Origin: Candidatus Bathyarchaeota archaeon | GTDB taxonomy: Archaea; Thermoproteota; Bathyarchaeia; Bathyarchaeales; Bathycorpusculaceae | Length of the DNA stretch: 64,000 bases | Reading direction: 5' to 3' | Assembly (NCBI GenBank): GCA_963707955.1 | Contig: OY970176.1 | Coordinates: 608,001 to 672,000 of the forward strand | Shown here: piece by piece, positions 1,733 through 8,728 of the stretch | How the letters are laid out: each line of letters starts with the position of its first letter | How positions within the stretch are numbered: position 1 is the first letter of the stretch | Translations under genes and position numbers: made by a program | Notes under the pieces: generated by a model | Database searches by the model: none | Seen by the model: the letters and a program-made list of their open reading frames with translations, nothing else | What the model was told of the DNA's origin: nothing

Positions 1733-1827
1733 TTGAAGCTGAAACTCTCATTTCAGGCGAGAAAAATAAGTGTTCCTCAACGCCTTTAAACCCTTACTCC
1801 TAAATAATACGCTTACGGTTTCGAGGG

Positions 1828-4050
1828 TTGGAGAGAGAGTTGTCTGTTCCCCAACGGGTCCGCGGGGTCAGGATACTGAAGGCTGTCTCGTCACCTTTGA
1901 GGCTGCAGATTTTGAACTTGCTTTTTGACGAGGGCCCGCTTTCTTACACTGAACTGATGGGTTCTCTCAAGATGAACCCCAGCAGGGATGCTGGAAGGTT
2001 TGCGTACCACCTGAAATTCTTGCTCAAGGCGGACTTGATCGAAGCGGATGTCGAGGCGAGGAAGTATCGCTTAACCGAACTGGGGAAGATGGTCATTGAC
2101 GTTGCGGACAAAATTGATAAGAAAGCTTTCAAGCCGAGAAGTGCGCTTGTTCGGACGAGCCGTCTTGCACTTGAAGAGTTTGATGCTAACAAGATTGCGA
2201 GCTCGTTGACAAGAGAAGCGAAGATGCCTGCTGAGCTTGCGCAAAGAGTGGCCAAAGAAGCAGAGAAACAGCTGATTCGGGCAAGAACGAAGTATTTGAC
2301 TGCTCCACTCGTGAGAGAAGTCGTGAACGCGATCTTGATAGAGAAAGGCTTGGAAGAGTATCGACACAAGCTTACACGGTTGGGAATACCTGTTCACGAC
2401 GTGACCAGTCTTTTAGAATCGAGGAACATAACCCCTCACGAAACGGTCTCAGCGCAGGAATCAGCTGGTGAAACAGTCTTCAAGGAGTACACGCTGCTGA
2501 ACATTCTCCCAAGAGACGTTTCAGATGCTCACTTGTCAGGTTCCTTACACCTCAACGGCTTAAGCTCATGGATCCTGAAGCCTAATGAAATAATGCACGA
2601 CCTCCGATTCTTTTTAGGAAACGGCTTAGACCTGGAGAGAATTGACCCGCTGCAACAGTCCCAACCTGCACCTCAGAACTTTCAGGCCGCGCTTTCTTTA
2701 ACTTTCAACGTTCTTCTGCACAGCGCTAAAGAAGTCGACACCATGCAGACACTCGACTACTTCAACGTGTTCCTAGCCCCATTCGCCAAGGATGCTGAAA
2801 CCTCTAAGGTCAAAGAAGCTTTGCGGTTGTTCACTGCAAGCTTGGCTCAGCACGCACATGTTTCTCTAGGCCTGGAGCTGACTGTTCCAGACTTCTTGGC
2901 TGAGAAGCAAGCCGTGGGTCCTGGTGGAAAGCCTATCGGCACTTACGCAGATTTCACTGAACAGGTCCAGCTTTTGGCATCTCTCTTGCTTGAGGTCTTC
3001 GCTGAAGAGGGTAGCCGTAAGCCGCTGACGGACCCGGAGCTTGTCCTGAAAATCCGCGCAGAAACCACCTCGAATGAAAGAGCAAAAGCGTTGCTGCTGA
3101 AAGCTCACAGCCTAGCTTCAGAAAGAGGCGTTCTATACTTTGCCAACGCGCTCAAGAAGGAGAGGAAACATTCCGTTTTTTCTTCATCAGGGCTTGTGCT
3201 CGACACAGATTTGAGCGGTGACTGGGAAATTGACACGTTGCGCACAGGGTGTCTCGGAGTCGTAACGATCAATGTTCCGCGAATCGCGTATGAATCGTGC
3301 AGAGACCAGACAAAATTCCTTGAAATCCTAAAGGAAAGGATTGAGATGGCAGACAGGGCGCTAGAAATCAAACATAGGGCCCTGACGCATCGCGGCAAGA
3401 ATCTGCTGCCGTTTATCATGCAGGGCGGCAGTGGAGACCAATACTTCAGACTTGAAAGCTGTTCTCGCATAATAAACTTGGCGGGGTTGAAACAGGGTGC
3501 TGAGATGTTCTGTGAAAAAAGTGCTGGCGACGAAAAGACATTAGCCTTCTCAGCGGAAATCGCACGAGACGTTTCAGTCTACGTTCAGAAGATCGGCAGA
3601 AGACGCGGAAAACGCTTGTCCGCTGCGATGCTTCCCAACTGCGAAGCTTCTAAGAGACTGGCCCAGATGGACATCGAAAGGTACGGAGTTGCGAAAGTGA
3701 AGTTTTCAGGCGTGAGAGAGAAGCCTTTCTACTCCACTGCCAACCGAATACCGATTACCGGCGGAAGGGTCGCAGAAGAATCGTTGACGTTTGAAGATAA
3801 GCTGGCCGAAGCGCATGTTGGTGGAAGCCTAACGGTCGTCGACCTTGGCGAGAGCAAGCATGAGCCTGAAGAGCTTATGGCAATTACTAGACAGCTCACT
3901 GAAGGTCACAACGTAGACGTCTTCACTTATGACCGCAAACTCACCTATTGCGTCAGCTGCAAGAAAAGCTGGTTTGGCCTACTGCACAAGTGCCCCTCAT
4001 GCGGAGCGGTGGGAACGTTAGCCTTCCTTGACAGGTTCATGGGCACGTGA
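1828..4050 (+). CDS. ArsR-type wHTH + ATP-cone + class III (anaerobic) ribonucleotide reductase-like fusion, probably catalytically degenerate
   Basis: N-terminal SSPLRLQILNLL...LSYTELM...FAYHLKFL HTH; ATP cone (VRTSRLALEEFDANKIASSL...TAPLVREVV); NrdD-like HDLRFF, DTLRTG, TINVPRIAY and C-terminal CxxC...CxxC. Confidence 0.85.
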   Translation: MERELSVPQRVRGVRILKAVSSPLRLQILNLLFDEGPLSYTELMGSLKMNPSRDAGRFAYHLKFLLKADLIEADVEARKYRLTELGKMVIDVADKIDKKAFKPRSALVRTSRLALEEFDANKIASSLTREAKMPAELAQRVAKEAEKQLIRARTKYLTAPLVREVVNAILIEKGLEEYRHKLTRLGIPVHDVTSLLESRNITPHETVSAQESAGETVFKEYTLLNILPRDVSDAHLSGSLHLNGLSSWILKPNEIMHDLRFFLGNGLDLERIDPLQQSQPAPQNFQAALSLTFNVLLHSAKEVDTMQTLDYFNVFLAPFAKDAETSKVKEALRLFTASLAQHAHVSLGLELTVPDFLAEKQAVGPGGKPIGTYADFTEQVQLLASLLLEVFAEEGSRKPLTDPELVLKIRAETTSNERAKALLLKAHSLASERGVLYFANALKKERKHSVFSSSGLVLDTDLSGDWEIDTLRTGCLGVVTINVPRIAYESCRDQTKFLEILKERIEMADRALEIKHRALTHRGKNLLPFIMQGGSGDQYFRLESCSRIINLAGLKQGAEMFCEKSAGDEKTLAFSAEIARDVSVYVQKIGRRRGKRLSAAMLPNCEASKRLAQMDIERYGVAKVKFSGVREKPFYSTANRIPITGGRVAEESLTFEDKLAEAHVGGSLTVVDLGESKHEPEELMAITRQLTEGHNVDVFTYDRKLTYCVSCKKSWFGLLHKCPSCGAVGTLAFLDRFMGT

Positions 4051-4072: not shown

Positions 4073-5020
<948 letters not shown>

Positions 5021-5224
5021 CTACTAGATAAGAATTTGTGGCACTCCTTCTAGCGTGCGCTAGCGCAAATCGACATACCCACTTCATCTTGCGGCTTCAG
5101 AAAACACGTAAAGAATTTGGCGGTTTTCTTCTCTATTCACGCAGAGAAAAGTCTCACTCTGCCAAGGATTAAAGTCTTTTATCTGCGGTTGTGGTATTAC
5201 CGTTTTCTTAGAAGGGAATTTCGA

Positions 5225-5695
5225 ATGACCGAGACTGAGCTGAGGGTTTCAAAGATCAAGGATGGCACAGTTATTGATCACATAACGAGAGGACACGCGT
5301 TGGACGTTGTCAAGATTCTGGGCATCACAGGAAACGACAAGGGCCCTATCACGATCGCCATTAATGTTCCGAGTAAACGGTTAAGGACGAAGGACATCGT
5401 CAAGATAGAGGGCAGGGAATTGAAGCCGCAGGAAGTTCACAAGATCGCTTTGATCGCGCCGCATGCTAGCATTAACATCATTCGAGGCTACAAAGTTGTA
5501 AAAAAGGAAGAGGTGAAGCTGCCAAAAGTCATTGACGACATTATCAAGTGCGCCAACCCAGCTTGCATAAGCAACAGCAATGAGCCTGTTAAAGCCAGGT
5601 TCTACGTTGAATGCGAGGAACCGCTGTTATTGAAGTGCCACTACTGTGGCTACATCGTCGAAAAGAAAGATGTGTTGCAGCAGTTTTGGTATTAG
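5225..5695 (+). CDS. pyrI: aspartate carbamoyltransferase regulatory subunit
   Basis: LRVSKIKDGTVIDHI, KDIVKIEG, Zn-binding CANPACIS...CHYC; ATG at 5225. Confidence 0.96.
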   Translation: MTETELRVSKIKDGTVIDHITRGHALDVVKILGITGNDKGPITIAINVPSKRLRTKDIVKIEGRELKPQEVHKIALIAPHASINIIRGYKVVKKEEVKLPKVIDDIIKCANPACISNSNEPVKARFYVECEEPLLLKCHYCGYIVEKKDVLQQFWY

Positions 5696-5814
5696 TGTTG
5701 AACAATTGGACTGGCGAAATGTTTATATCGTAAGATAGCATATTCTATAACTAGATATGTCCGCTCTGGGACATATTGTATCCGTGCAGAACAGAAATAC
5801 ACGTGGTGAAAAAC

Positions 5815-6153
5815 ATGATTGAAATGTTCACGTCCAACCTGTGGATAATCGCGCCCAGCCTCTGGGCGTGTTTCATAGCCTATGTAATCTGGTACTCTGC
5901 AAGAGCGAAGGATTACGCCCCCATAACGCCTACAGAAGCCAGACAACTCTGGGTCATTCATCAGCAAGACTCCCACTGCAGCAGCAAAAAATGGCGACAA
6001 CTGAGAAAACGAGGCATAACAGTAGGCTTCGAATGCGGTTGCGGCCACAAGTACACGCAGCTACGTCCGATCGTGGCCCACCTGCCTTCAACGGCGGTTC
6101 AGCTGCAGACCGCGACGCTGAACACCGCAGAGCCTCCAAACAAGACCTCGTAG
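5815..6153 (+). CDS. small membrane-anchored protein with putative Zn-binding His/Cys motif
   Basis: N-terminal hydrophobic helix, then WVIH...C...FECGCGH. Confidence 0.6.
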   Translation: MIEMFTSNLWIIAPSLWACFIAYVIWYSARAKDYAPITPTEARQLWVIHQQDSHCSSKKWRQLRKRGITVGFECGCGHKYTQLRPIVAHLPSTAVQLQTATLNTAEPPNKTS

Positions 6154-6176
6154 GACTCTGAATCGGCAACCTTGGT

Positions 6177-6617
6177 TCACTTGATTTGATTACGGGCCAA
6201 CCGAAATAGCTCTTCGAAGTAGACCTTTCCCAACAGCTTGCCTCTGCCTATTCCTGGACATTCCTTCGTGGAAGAAAAAACGAGCCTCCCGTTTCGTAGT
6301 GTTCTTAACTGGAACGGATAGTATCGGCAGACGAGCGGTCTCGAAGCGTATATGATACATGTGTCCTTTTCAAGAAATAGACACTTACCGCTTATGCTCT
6401 TTCTCATCTCATAGACGTAGGGTTCGCGGCCTTCGGTTCTGCACGCGAAATCTTCAACGGGCCTTGAGGTTGTTTCAGAGATCCTCTGCGCCTCCTTTTT
6501 CAACAAGAGAATGTGCCTAGCCCTCGCTTCTGCATCGCCGCAGCACAGCCCACATCTCGTGCATTGAAATCGGACGTTCTTCGGGTAGGCGAAGTTCGTG
6601 TGAGTTCTAGACATCAA
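6177..6617 (-). CDS. YkgJ family cysteine-cluster (CxxCxxCC) protein
   Basis: FQCTRCGLCC, CLFL...CIIYASRPLVCRYYPF, ECPGIG. Confidence 0.9.
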   Translation of the reverse strand: MMSRTHTNFAYPKNVRFQCTRCGLCCGDAEARARHILLLKKEAQRISETTSRPVEDFACRTEGREPYVYEMRKSISGKCLFLEKDTCIIYASRPLVCRYYPFQLRTLRNGRLVFSSTKECPGIGRGKLLGKVYFEELFRLARNQIK

Positions 6618-6900
6618 CCAATGATGCAGGAAGCTAGGGGTAAAAACTCTTGTGCTTTAAGCTTTGATTCTCGGTTCTAACATGTCGCATTCAGAGCTTT
6701 TTCGAACCAGGCTGGCTTTCTTTTCCTCCGAGTCCACTTTCACTGCAGCTAATTCTGAACTAATGATTCAAGCTTCTTTCGTTTTGCGGTCTCTAACGTG
6801 CTGCTTTCCTGCTTCTTTTGAGTCATTTCCAGTTCGTGTATTCGGGTCGCTATTACCCCAAATGTTATTTACTTTTTCAGCTGATTAGGATTCGCAGGAT

Positions 6901-7395
6901 GTGGGCTACGTGGATCCAAGAACCCTTATGGAATACAGCCACGTGCTTAGGAATCGATACTTGGAACAGCTCGCCACACTTCCTTGGGAGGAGGTTGTGA
7001 AGAGCCGTGGAGCCAGCTTTGATTCCTTGAGGAATATTCTTTTGCACACGCTTGACGCTGAAGATAGGATGGTCAACTACGCCATCCCTGGTCGTGTGAA
7101 AGACTGGGTTTCACGGAGCCCAGAAGATTTTCAGGACATAGCTTCCGTCCGAAAGCGCATGAAAGAGGTTGAATCAAAGACTAACGCCTATGTCGCAAAG
7201 ATAACTCCTGCCGAGCTTGAAAGAAAAGTGGAATACTCGAGGCCAGGAATGCCACCTCTAACAGTGCGAGTGGAGGACATTCTGATTCATGTTGTTCTTG
7301 AAAGCATACACCACTTCGGCGAGCTGATCGCGCTCCTGTGGCAAATCGACGCAGAACCACCTCACATGGGTTGGATAACCTACCTCCAGAGATAA
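6901..7395 (+). CDS. DinB/YfiT family protein
   Basis: SLRNILLH...E and HVVLESIHHFGEL metal-binding helical motifs. Confidence 0.85.
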   Translation: MGYVDPRTLMEYSHVLRNRYLEQLATLPWEEVVKSRGASFDSLRNILLHTLDAEDRMVNYAIPGRVKDWVSRSPEDFQDIASVRKRMKEVESKTNAYVAKITPAELERKVEYSRPGMPPLTVRVEDILIHVVLESIHHFGELIALLWQIDAEPPHMGWITYLQR

Positions 7396-7546
7396 CCTCT
7401 CCACAGCTCGTAGAATCAGCAAATTTCGCGCGGTCTAAACGAGTTTCTGAGAATCATCAAAACAATCGGTGAGAGCTTGTTGACTTGAGCGAGGCTCAAG
7501 GAATGTGAGAGTCGATGGGAGCAAAGCCACGTTTAGGTTGCTTGTG

Positions 7547-8728
7547 CTAGATTTTGTTGAAGGCCTGCTCCAAGTCGGCGATGATGTCCTCTGGGTCTTC
7601 TATTCCCAGAGCCAACCTGATCAGCTGATCCGTTATCCCTGCTTTTTTTCGGTCTTCAACGCTGACGAAGTAGTGCGACGCCGTGACGGGCTGAGTGACC
7701 AGCGTTTCGGTTCCTCCGAGGCTGGAGGCTAAAGAACAAAGTTTCAGGTTTTCCACGAACTTCGCAGTCGTCTCAAAGTCTCTGTCGATTTCGAAGCTGA
7801 CGACTCCGCCGAAGCCCGTCATCTGCCGCTTGGCAATTGCGTGCTGAGGGTGACTTTCAAGGCCTGGATAGTGCACGGTTTTGACTTTTGGATGTCCTTC
7901 AAGATACGTTGCCACTTTGATGCCGTTGGAGTTGTGCCTCTCCATTCGCAAGCCCAGAGTCTTTAATCCACGTAGTAGTAGCCAAGCGGCGAGGGGATCA
8001 AGAGTTCCGCCTAAGCTTTTGCGCGTTTTTTTCAGTTCTTGCACAAACCTTTCTGAACCGCACACGACTCCAGCGGTCACGTCGTTGTGCCCACACAGGT
8101 ATTTCGTGGCGCTGTGGACCACGACGTCGACGCCTAGCTCCGTAGGCTTCGTGTTGTACGGAGAAGCGAAGGTGCTGTCAACGACAACCGTGGCTCCTTT
8201 CTCTTTTCCGATCTTGGCGACCGCGGATAAATCCGCAACCTTAAGCGTAGGATTGGTCGGGGTTTCAGCGTAAATGACCTTTGTGTTGCTTCGAGTGGCA
8301 GATCTTATTTCATCCAGATCTGTTGCGTCCACCAAAGTCGTTTCCACGCCGAATTTCGGCAAGACCTTGTTGAAGAATTCCAAAGTTCCACCGTACAAGT
8401 CCCTAGTGGAGACAACGTGGTCACCTGACGAGACGAGCGTGAAAAACGTTGTCGCAATGGCGGCCATGCCGGAAGAGAAAACCGCTGCGTCTTCACTCTG
8501 TTCAAGCTCAGCCATCTTGTCCTCAACACTTCTAGTCGTCGGATTCCCATACCTAGTGTAAACATACCCTTCGGCCTTCTCGCCCATAACGTCCACTAGC
8601 TGCTTCGTGCTAGAAAACGCGAACACGGATGTCTCATAGATCGGCTCGACAACAGCTCCCGAGGAAGAACCTCGCTTATCCCCCGCATGAACCGCTTTGG
8701 TTGAAAAACCCATACCTTTTGAAACCAA
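7547..8728 (-). CDS. Cys/Met metabolism PLP-dependent enzyme (cystathionine gamma-synthase / methionine gamma-lyase family)
   Basis: YTRYGNPT, FSSGMAA, ETPTNPTL, DSTFASP, HSATKYLCGH (PLP lysine), SLGGTETL. Confidence 0.93.
   Translation of the reverse strand: MVSKGMGFSTKAVHAGDKRGSSSGAVVEPIYETSVFAFSSTKQLVDVMGEKAEGYVYTRYGNPTTRSVEDKMAELEQSEDAAVFSSGMAAIATTFFTLVSSGDHVVSTRDLYGGTLEFFNKVLPKFGVETTLVDATDLDEIRSATRSNTKVIYAETPTNPTLKVADLSAVAKIGKEKGATVVVDSTFASPYNTKPTELGVDVVVHSATKYLCGHNDVTAGVVCGSERFVQELKKTRKSLGGTLDPLAAWLLLRGLKTLGLRMERHNSNGIKVATYLEGHPKVKTVHYPGLESHPQHAIAKRQMTGFGGVVSFEIDRDFETTAKFVENLKLCSLASSLGGTETLVTQPVTASHYFVSVEDRKKAGITDQLIRLALGIEDPEDIIADLEQAFNKI

Follow-up and report, generated by a model that had tools for sequence, protein, structure and literature searches.

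A winged-helix fusion of a class III ribonucleotide reductase pseudoenzyme in Bathyarchaeota and related archaea, a candidate nucleotide-responsive transcription factor

According to the sections of PMC9110341 available to us, the bacterial transcriptional repressor NrdR senses ATP and dATP through its ATP-cone, binds boxes at the promoters of ribonucleotide reductase (RNR) genes, is often encoded directly before such genes, probably controls its own expression and is "rare in archaea". Here we describe a gene, called the paralog below, from a 64,000-nt stretch (the window) of Candidatus Bathyarchaeota archaeon (assembly GCA_963707955.1, contig OY970176.1, positions 608,001 to 672,000, forward strand), the product of which also joins an ATP-cone to a DNA-binding domain and is homologous to the class III RNR NrdD. 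It differs from NrdR in that its DNA-binding domain is an ArsR-type winged helix whereas that of NrdR is a Zn ribbon, and TIGR00244 (NrdR) was absent among its NCBIfam matches at E-values up to 1. It adds a dead NrdD barrel of about 530 residues with a C-terminal Zn ribbon of its own, its cone belongs to a variant type that a subgroup of archaeal NrdDs also has, and its genome has a separate true NrdR, with boxes at nrdR-nrdD and none at the promoter of the paralog.

With class III NrdD (PF13597; 9d3x, 4coi, 1h78 and 8p23) the paralog shares the cone, the connector, the barrel and the Zn ribbon, whereas it lacks the thiyl Cys, the bottom Cys, the glycyl-radical domain, HxHD and NxN and carries an additional winged helix-turn-helix (HTH). 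It thereby resembles GlyXL, a relative of anaerobic RNR without the radical residues that is conserved and functional, acting in glycine synthesis with the ACT protein GlyXS; PDB entry 2HA9 and PF13740 are named for this system, and no HTH or ATP-cone is described for GlyXL in the available part of that paper (PMC13759103). The paralog, however, has no PF05167 match, and neither PF05167 nor PF13740 (GlyXS, ACT_6) was found in its genome. Its N-terminal 75 residues match HTH_5 above the cut-off and resemble ArsR and HlyU chains, as expected of the ArsR/SmtB group, from which it differs by remaining under the cut-off of NF033788 and by its fusion to about 650 residues of RNR origin. The full-text literature yielded no report of an NrdD that is fused to an HTH or catalytically dead, supplementary sequence sets being outside that search, and the terms helix-turn-helix, winged and DNA-binding are not mentioned in two RNR-family phylogeny papers (PMC9669993, PMC9531940), the supplements of which may hold members under class III. 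Our analysis makes it near certain that the paralog is a pseudoenzyme of class III RNR, and we give a probability of roughly 0.6 to its being a transcription factor that responds to nucleotides and is linked to RNR and pyrimidine genes.

Domain architecture and catalytic residues

Residue numbers are counted throughout from the TTG at 1828, and coordinates are those of the 64,000-nt stretch. The open reading frame (ORF) at 1828-4050 (+), of 740 codons, from which the sequence-only reading set out, was confirmed as real in the ORF list, but translation likely starts at TTG 1840, because a start codon is found at this position in 12 of 12 same-family loci (at that of 1828 in 4 of 12), because GGAG is located at 1830-1833, 7-10 nt 5' of it, and because database records begin there (P0002, 736 aa). 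The features of the gene are as follows.

1840..4050, + strand: coding sequence of the HTH, ATP-cone and NrdD-like protein, 736 aa (740 aa from the alternative TTG 1828)
1876..2100, + strand: ArsR-type winged HTH, residues 17-91 (HTH_5 and DUF7347)
2161..2361, + strand: ATP-cone, residues 112-178 (PF03477), with hairpin VRTSR in place of KRDG
2389..2472, + strand: stretch of the Asn-x-Asn flap, NxN absent (regular-expression search)
2443..4041, + strand: NrdD-like barrel, residues 206-738 (PF13597), predicted to be catalytically dead
2548..2559, + strand: HLNG in place of the substrate-triphosphate motif HxHD (alignment to intact NrdDs)
2587..2589, + strand: E254 at the position of the bottom-face catalytic Cys (AYC174VGWD in the intact NrdD)
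3181..3195, + strand: finger loop S452-S-S-G-L456 (SSSGL) in place of SMC379C380RL, with the thiyl-radical Cys
3949..4002, + strand: Zn ribbon CxxC-N10-CxxC (C708, C711, C722, C725)
4033..4050, + strand: C-terminus RFMGT and stop at the glycyl-radical position, the stop being one residue past the radical Gly

Pfam matches above cut-off bore out the order of domains that had been read from the sequence, an ArsR-like winged HTH, an ATP cone and an NrdD barrel. Residues 17-91 matched HTH_5 with 28 bits (cut-off 22) and DUF7347 with 32.3 bits (cut-off 27.6), while the metalloregulator subfamily model NF033788 was not reached (31.3 bits against a cut-off of 55). The nearest solved relatives by sequence of the N-terminal 102 residues were ArsR 6j05 (E 0.006) and HlyU, and those of the whole protein were class III RNRs only (9d3x, 4coi, 4u3e and 1h78). 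The barrel matched PF13597 with 211 bits over residues 206-738, showing homology over its whole length, and the NrdD equivalog model TIGR02487 was matched at 232.5 bits, under its cut-off of 326.35.

Residue counts were made on the 184 members with an HTH from a set of 219 full-length relatives; the other 35, without a recognisable HTH, were set aside and include six genuine NrdDs as well as a two-cone group. Intact NrdD references were aligned alongside (7 for the Cys, RxxG[YFW] and NxN counts and 13 for the HxHD count), and residues of the paralog were assigned by aligning it with the intact NrdD that its own genome encodes. Comparison of these sets showed that the bottom-face position is a Cys in none of the 184 relatives (E in 127, T in 20, S in 12 and other residues in the rest) and in 7/7 references. 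A Cys was present somewhere in the finger-loop window of 24/184 relatives, shifted and unconserved, and FYTNS of the intact NrdD is replaced by FYSTA in the paralog. The glycyl loop had been read as RFMGT followed immediately by a stop; the stop was confirmed and RxxG[YFW] was found in 0/184 relatives, but the Gly itself is retained in the paralog (G739), as it is in 33/184 relatives. Deeper members of the family carry a longer, degenerate tail (e.g., YSRSLAKYLPL), so that the glycyl-radical domain decayed first and was cut off later in the clade of the window.

Losses were also found beyond those listed by the sequence-only reading. The fourth position of HxHD, replaced by HLNG in the paralog, is an Asp in 13/184 relatives as opposed to 12/13 intact NrdDs, and an NxN match in the stretch of the Asn-x-Asn flap was obtained in 3/184 relatives as opposed to 7/7 references. 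In the consulted parts of PMC11226230 and PMC12662201, HxHD is described as binding the substrate triphosphate in NrdD and the Asn-x-Asn flap as closing over the substrate. The intact NrdDs compared had every feature checked (7/7; 12/13 for HxHD). The Zn site and the ATP cone had been read as kept, and this agrees with our alignments: the four Cys of the ribbon are invariant in alignments A1 and A2 and are Cys in 176-177 of the 184 relatives, and PF03477 was matched above its cut-off. The Cys of RTGC (C475), which had been raised as a possible alternative thiyl site, is a Cys in 107/184 relatives, and this idea fails because the position is not conserved and the glycyl-radical domain is absent. 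A conserved, correctly placed Gly/Cys pair was sought among the 184 relatives and not found, and this consistent loss of the radical residues, together with the presence of other RNRs in the genome, upholds the claim of a pseudoenzyme.

The genome, a single 2.35-Mb contig, encodes a second NrdD (PF13597, 651 bits), a complete nrdR-nrdD-nrdG operon (NrdG2, 167.6 bits; NrdR, 166.8 bits) and a PF02867 RNR. The latter can be taken as class II by inference, since no class I small (beta) subunit was found in the genome. The paralog is thus not needed for ribonucleotide reduction, since the operon and the class II-type RNR are both present, and the check for a separate intact RNR and NrdG in the genome was positive on both counts. 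A single NrdG2 exceeded the cut-off in the genome and is located 3' of the canonical nrdD; as had been noticed, no NrdG adjoins the paralog among the ORFs of the window, its neighbours being tRNA-Pro(CGG) and pyrB.

Selection, distribution and descent

The ratio of nonsynonymous to synonymous substitution rates (dN/dS) was calculated from three pairs of orthologs that are 90-92% identical. It was 0.01-0.05 for the HTH, 0.03-0.11 for the ATP-cone and 0.19-0.24 for the barrel, and that of the 40-codon segment with the Zn ribbon and the tail was noisy (0.07-1.4). These ratios indicate purifying selection on the gene, with the HTH and the cone under the tightest constraint. In comparison with a Nitrosopumilaceae ortholog, the N-terminal 245 residues or so (HTH, cone and connector) were clearly alignable and the barrel hardly so. 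Few columns of the barrel are invariant among 71 family members, while the cone is strongly conserved in the family alignment, with R109 and I123 invariant. The variant cone hairpin is found again, as VRTSK, in the intact NrdD that adjoins the paralog in a genome from another family (G031), and it is inherited and not a product of decay, because the intact neighbour has it too.

Of the 41 genomes of the order, 39 gave a strong match to the paralog and the other two are 64-65% complete. In a sample of 301 genomes from the phylum, 191 matched at E <= 1e-45. In nearly all of the matches listed for the phylum sample the alignment starts at query residues 2-16, so that these matches include the HTH. 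Orthologs were found in 44/44 sampled Nitrosopumilaceae genomes. In all, relatives are encoded on contigs of at least 599 species-representative genomes, their sources including Bathyarchaeota, Conexivisphaerales, Nitrososphaerota and several Candidatus Nitrosotenuis species. An Atlas search gave clusters of the same architecture in Promethearchaeota and Nanobdellota, which serve as leads only. Contigs of RNA libraries from two peat metatranscriptome runs, about 92-93% identical to the gene, cover parts of it; they represent the RNA of a relative, share few words with the gene and are a weak hint of transcription, from which no start, strand or level is read and in which gaps in coverage carry no meaning.

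The database labels of these proteins vary ("ArsR family regulator", "anaerobic ribonucleoside-triphosphate reductase", "hypothetical protein"), and the second of them is given to the family even in Nitrosotenuis. Nitrosotenuis is aerobic, and a metabolic reconstruction that trusts such a label can go wrong on anaerobic DNA synthesis.

In a quick tree (56 rows, LG+G4) the HTH proteins formed one clade with an SH-aLRT support of 97, which includes two rows without an HTH. The paralog probably derives from the QCC-type NrdD that still adjoins it in some lineages.

A second NrdD-like type without the finger-loop Cys was also observed, with two ATP-cones and no HTH (Pfam on six proteins). It comprises P0186, P0187, P0213, P0219, P0221, P0227, P0244, P0251-P0253 and P0267, falls into clades apart from the HTH family, with "archaeon BMS3Abin16" and "Euryarchaeota archaeon" as the names available, and may represent an independent loss of catalysis. 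In another genome (G008), the paralog appears to be present twice, on contigs C16 and C2, and each copy is broken into a pair of neighbouring frames, which match residues 34-525 and 524-740 in one copy and 4-403 and 401-739 in the other; these could be frameshifts or assembly errors.

Gene neighbourhood and promoter of the paralog

In 6/6 examined loci from other families of the order, the paralog was located directly 5' of nrdD on the same strand, with an nrdH-like gene between the two in two of the six loci. The NrdDs of these loci are all intact, while the paralogs all lack the catalytic residues. A further case of a paralog directly 5' of an intact nrdD was found in locus L146. The paralog was also found 201-265 bp 5' of a cone-bearing RNR of class I/II type in loci L143 and L144 and in 6 of 7 Nitrosopumilaceae genomes; in the seventh, the class I/II-type RNR is divergent and lies 746 bp from the paralog. 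In five closed Nitrosopumilaceae genomes, the paralog was the only NRDD match and no NrdG2 exceeded the cut-off (TIGR02491 was not part of this search). No NrdR above the cut-off was found in any of the 10 genomes with adjacency of paralog and RNR, the positive control having passed. An RNR gene, a second NrdD-like gene or pyrB/pyrI was next to the paralog in 13 of 20 further genomes from other families.

Several observations were made at these loci. GATC words are 4-6 times denser in the 260 nt 5' of the Nitrosopumilaceae orthologs (5-8 per 260 nt) than in the rest of the locus in 7/7 genomes. The GATC-dense loci (L130, L131 and L138-L142) hold AAAACTGATCTAAA repeats and TGATC-N7-GATCA, with TGATCGATCA before the RNR gene in L130, and some of the GATC signal coincides with the end of a conserved ORF located upstream. 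Before nrdH/nrdD in L024, L028 and L029, TGTCAA(AC) words are repeated 16 bp apart, and a conserved block, ACTACAGATTTTATAC...TTCTAAAAATT, lies 5' of the QCC-type nrdD in these same loci, which represent three families. In genome G044 (locus L158), the HTH paralog at 6112-8427(-) is followed by a 635-aa protein with a cone and an NrdD-like part at 4176-6083(-), in which a motif search found no HxHD, NxN, Cys pair or RxxGY; the two are tandem dead copies.

The surroundings of the paralog in the window are listed here, the tRNA, pyrB and pyrI serving as context only.

1655-1732, - strand: tRNA-Pro(CGG), divergent, about 100 bp 5' of the paralog
1768..1793, + strand: conserved promoter block AAGTGTTCCTCAACGCCTTTAAACCC, a candidate auto-operator judged from conservation
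4073..5020, - strand: pyrB (aspartate carbamoyltransferase), ORF convergent with the paralog
5222..5695, + strand: pyrI, ORF divergent from pyrB

The 26-bp promoter block holds a GTT-N4-AAC element at 1772-1781 (GTTCCTCAAC), followed after three bases by the TATA box TTTAAA at 1785-1790. The core of the block was found with no more than one mismatch in 11 of 18 scanned loci, namely 10 of 12 same-family loci (L012-L023) and L029, from another family. A position weight matrix built from the 11 sites scored 38.1 bits at the own promoter of the paralog and 17.2 bits at the next-best site, so that the block is unique in the genome. The element is therefore a candidate operator for the paralog's own promoter. 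In archaea, a site overlapping the region of the B recognition element (BRE) and the TATA box suits a repressor.

The 10-mer GTTCCYYAAC was not enriched in the genome, with 28 occurrences against about 18 expected by a rough uniform-base estimate. Words common to the promoters of the paralog and of nrdH/nrdD in the six loci did not exceed shuffled sequences, except for A/T-rich words in L024. Two further candidates were rejected: a second copy of the element at 1846-1855, inside the ORF, codes for Val-Pro-Gln and is kept in no loci but the four closest, and a 9-mer common to the own promoter and the region upstream of nrdR was within chance by a rough estimate.

That the paralog abuts pyrB, as had been noted, was confirmed: the gene is convergent and lies 22 bp past the stop of the paralog. 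Among 57 related loci with at least 3 kb of downstream flank, a convergent pyrB was located 7-439 bp 3' of the paralog in 55, whereas of the remaining two one has pyrB 3 kb upstream and one is without pyrB. The pyrI gene was beside pyrB in 22 of the 57 loci; the flanks of the others showed no pyrI. The gene order of L025, L026 and L029, paralog - (nrdH) - nrdD - pyrB - pyrI, suggests that the arrangement in the window arose by loss of the middle genes.

In the window, pyrB (-) and pyrI (+) are divergent and do not form a pyrBI operon. A bacterial-type scan, ill-suited to archaea, found no terminator-like site between the paralog and pyrB. The same tRNA sequence was seen by eye upstream of the paralog in 7 of 12 same-family loci.

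Proposed function and alternative explanations

The idea that this protein is an NrdR-like transcription factor received indirect support from the sequence comparisons, since the HTH is its most constrained part, since it is encoded 5' of RNR genes in genomes without a detected NrdR and since a conserved element stands at its TATA box. A second part of the idea, that the whole RNR fold would sense (d)NTP pools, was not supported as far as the active site is concerned, because HxHD and the NxN flap, which bind the substrate, are gone. Sensing would more plausibly proceed through the ATP-cone than through the active site. As a side observation, phmmer left the stretch with the P. copri s-site residues unaligned to the genome's own NrdD.

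We propose that an ancestral QCC-type NrdD, already equipped with the variant ATP-cone, was duplicated, that one copy acquired an N-terminal ArsR-type winged helix and that this copy then lost the thiyl Cys, the bottom Cys, the glycyl-radical domain, HxHD and the NxN flap. The barrel would serve as a dimer scaffold that presents two winged HTH domains to a promoter site, and an adenine nucleotide (ATP or dATP) bound at the cone would reposition these domains, in a manner similar to the movement of the cone in active NrdD, and so switch DNA binding. The paralog may control its own promoter through the GTT-N4-AAC element beside the TATA box and, in lineages without NrdR, may also control the RNR gene immediately downstream. 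In the genome of the window, pyrB/pyrI and the class II-type RNR would be candidate targets, without support from a motif.

A number of results weigh against a nucleotide-responsive regulator of RNR and pyrimidine genes. The cone passes its Pfam threshold only marginally (26.6 bits for PF03477, cut-off 25.8). In the available part of PMC12662201, a Lys-Arg pair of the hairpin is reported to contact the nucleotide phosphates in the RNRs of E. coli and S. thermophilus; this pair is Thr-Ser in the paralog, so that the ligand may differ from ATP/dATP. In this genome, the promoters of nrdR, pyrB/pyrI and the class II RNR showed no element similar to GTT-N4-AAC, and NrdR-box palindromes are present at its nrdR-nrdD and not at the promoter of the paralog. 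No RNR or pyr gene was nearby in 7 of the 20 further loci. Finally, the adjacency to pyrB, which is convergent and not that of an operon, may be left over from an older cluster with the order paralog-nrdH-nrdD-pyrB.

Three of these results, the lack of a common operator at the nrd, pyr and class II RNR promoters, the replacement of Lys-Arg in the hairpin and the seven loci without a neighbour from nucleotide metabolism, would fit a DNA-binding regulator whose signal or regulon is unrelated to nucleotide supply, the cone and the barrel being an oligomerisation body and the adjacency inherited synteny. We consider this unlikely: adjacency to two classes of RNR in separate lineages is hard to explain by inherited synteny alone, and the cone is the second most constrained domain of the protein.

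The purifying selection on the barrel itself (dN/dS of 0.19-0.24) indicates that it does more than nothing, a further point against the preferred reading. GlyXL demonstrates, in the available part of PMC13759103, that an NrdD-like fold without the Cys can be an enzyme. The barrel could thus have a new, non-radical activity of the kind proposed for GlyXL, which the HTH would couple to gene control as in a "trigger enzyme". This is rather improbable for a barrel that diverges almost beyond alignment between classes and has few invariant columns, unlike a conserved active site. The paralog had no Pfam DUF711 match at E-values up to 1, DUF711/PF05167 being the family to which, we presume, GlyXL belongs, and the GlyXL entry 2HA9 was absent from its PDB matches; the genome is without DUF711 and its ACT_6 partner and has SHMT.

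NrdD enzymes are dimeric and the paralog is encoded beside an intact NrdD in several lineages, as would suit a role at the protein level and not on DNA, for instance as a decoy or an allosteric partner of active NrdD or NrdG. We regard such a role as very doubtful, because it is contradicted by the orthologs in genomes without NrdD (44/44 Nitrosopumilaceae have an ortholog, and the five closed genomes have neither another NRDD match nor NrdG2) and the HTH is the most constrained part. NrdD of Thermotoga has an unusually placed Cys, and the paralog has C475 and G739, but it is practically untenable that the protein works as a class III RNR by means of a displaced Cys, such as that of RTGC, and the terminal Gly, given the poor conservation of both positions, a stop one residue past the Gly that leaves no glycyl-radical domain, the loss of HxHD, the NxN flap and the bottom Cys, a TIGR02487 score under the cut-off and orthologs in genomes where NrdG2 was not found.

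With the nucleotide-responsive regulator retained as the preferred reading, a wider proposal can be made, tentatively and with less than even odds. Across Thermoproteota, and perhaps among Asgard and DPANN archaea too, this family may be the ancestral and principal transcription factor that governs the supply of deoxyribonucleotides and pyrimidines. It would be a functional counterpart of bacterial NrdR, made from a duplicate of the enzyme that it controls, with the cone of that enzyme as the sensor, and may be kept beside an nrdR operon by virtue of other targets. A widespread protein with a DNA-binding domain and an RNR-type cone, encoded before the RNR gene of its host, whatever the class of that RNR, makes the transcriptional control of archaeal RNR directly testable, e.g., in cultivated ammonia-oxidising archaea. 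If the preferred reading is true, the paralog would show clearly how an enzyme can become the regulator of the pathway to which it belonged.

Palindromes similar to NrdR boxes were observed in the nrdR-nrdD-nrdG operon of the genome just 3' of an archaeal TATA box, followed by the half-site AAACACTA. They are located at about 560-700 of L001 (G000:C1, about 423.6-423.8 kb, outside the window) and in the same region of 17 relatives (L030-L046); examples are ACGCTAGATACAGCGT in the genome of the window, ACACTATATGTAGTGT in G027 and GCGCTATATATAGCGC in G024. At nrdR-nrdD-nrdG, a repressor system of bacterial type thus seems to work on an archaeal promoter. In the family of the window, an NrdR-like ORF precedes nrdD in 18 of 21 genomes, as judged by eye from the Zn-ribbon pattern and verified with the model only in the genome of the window (G000).

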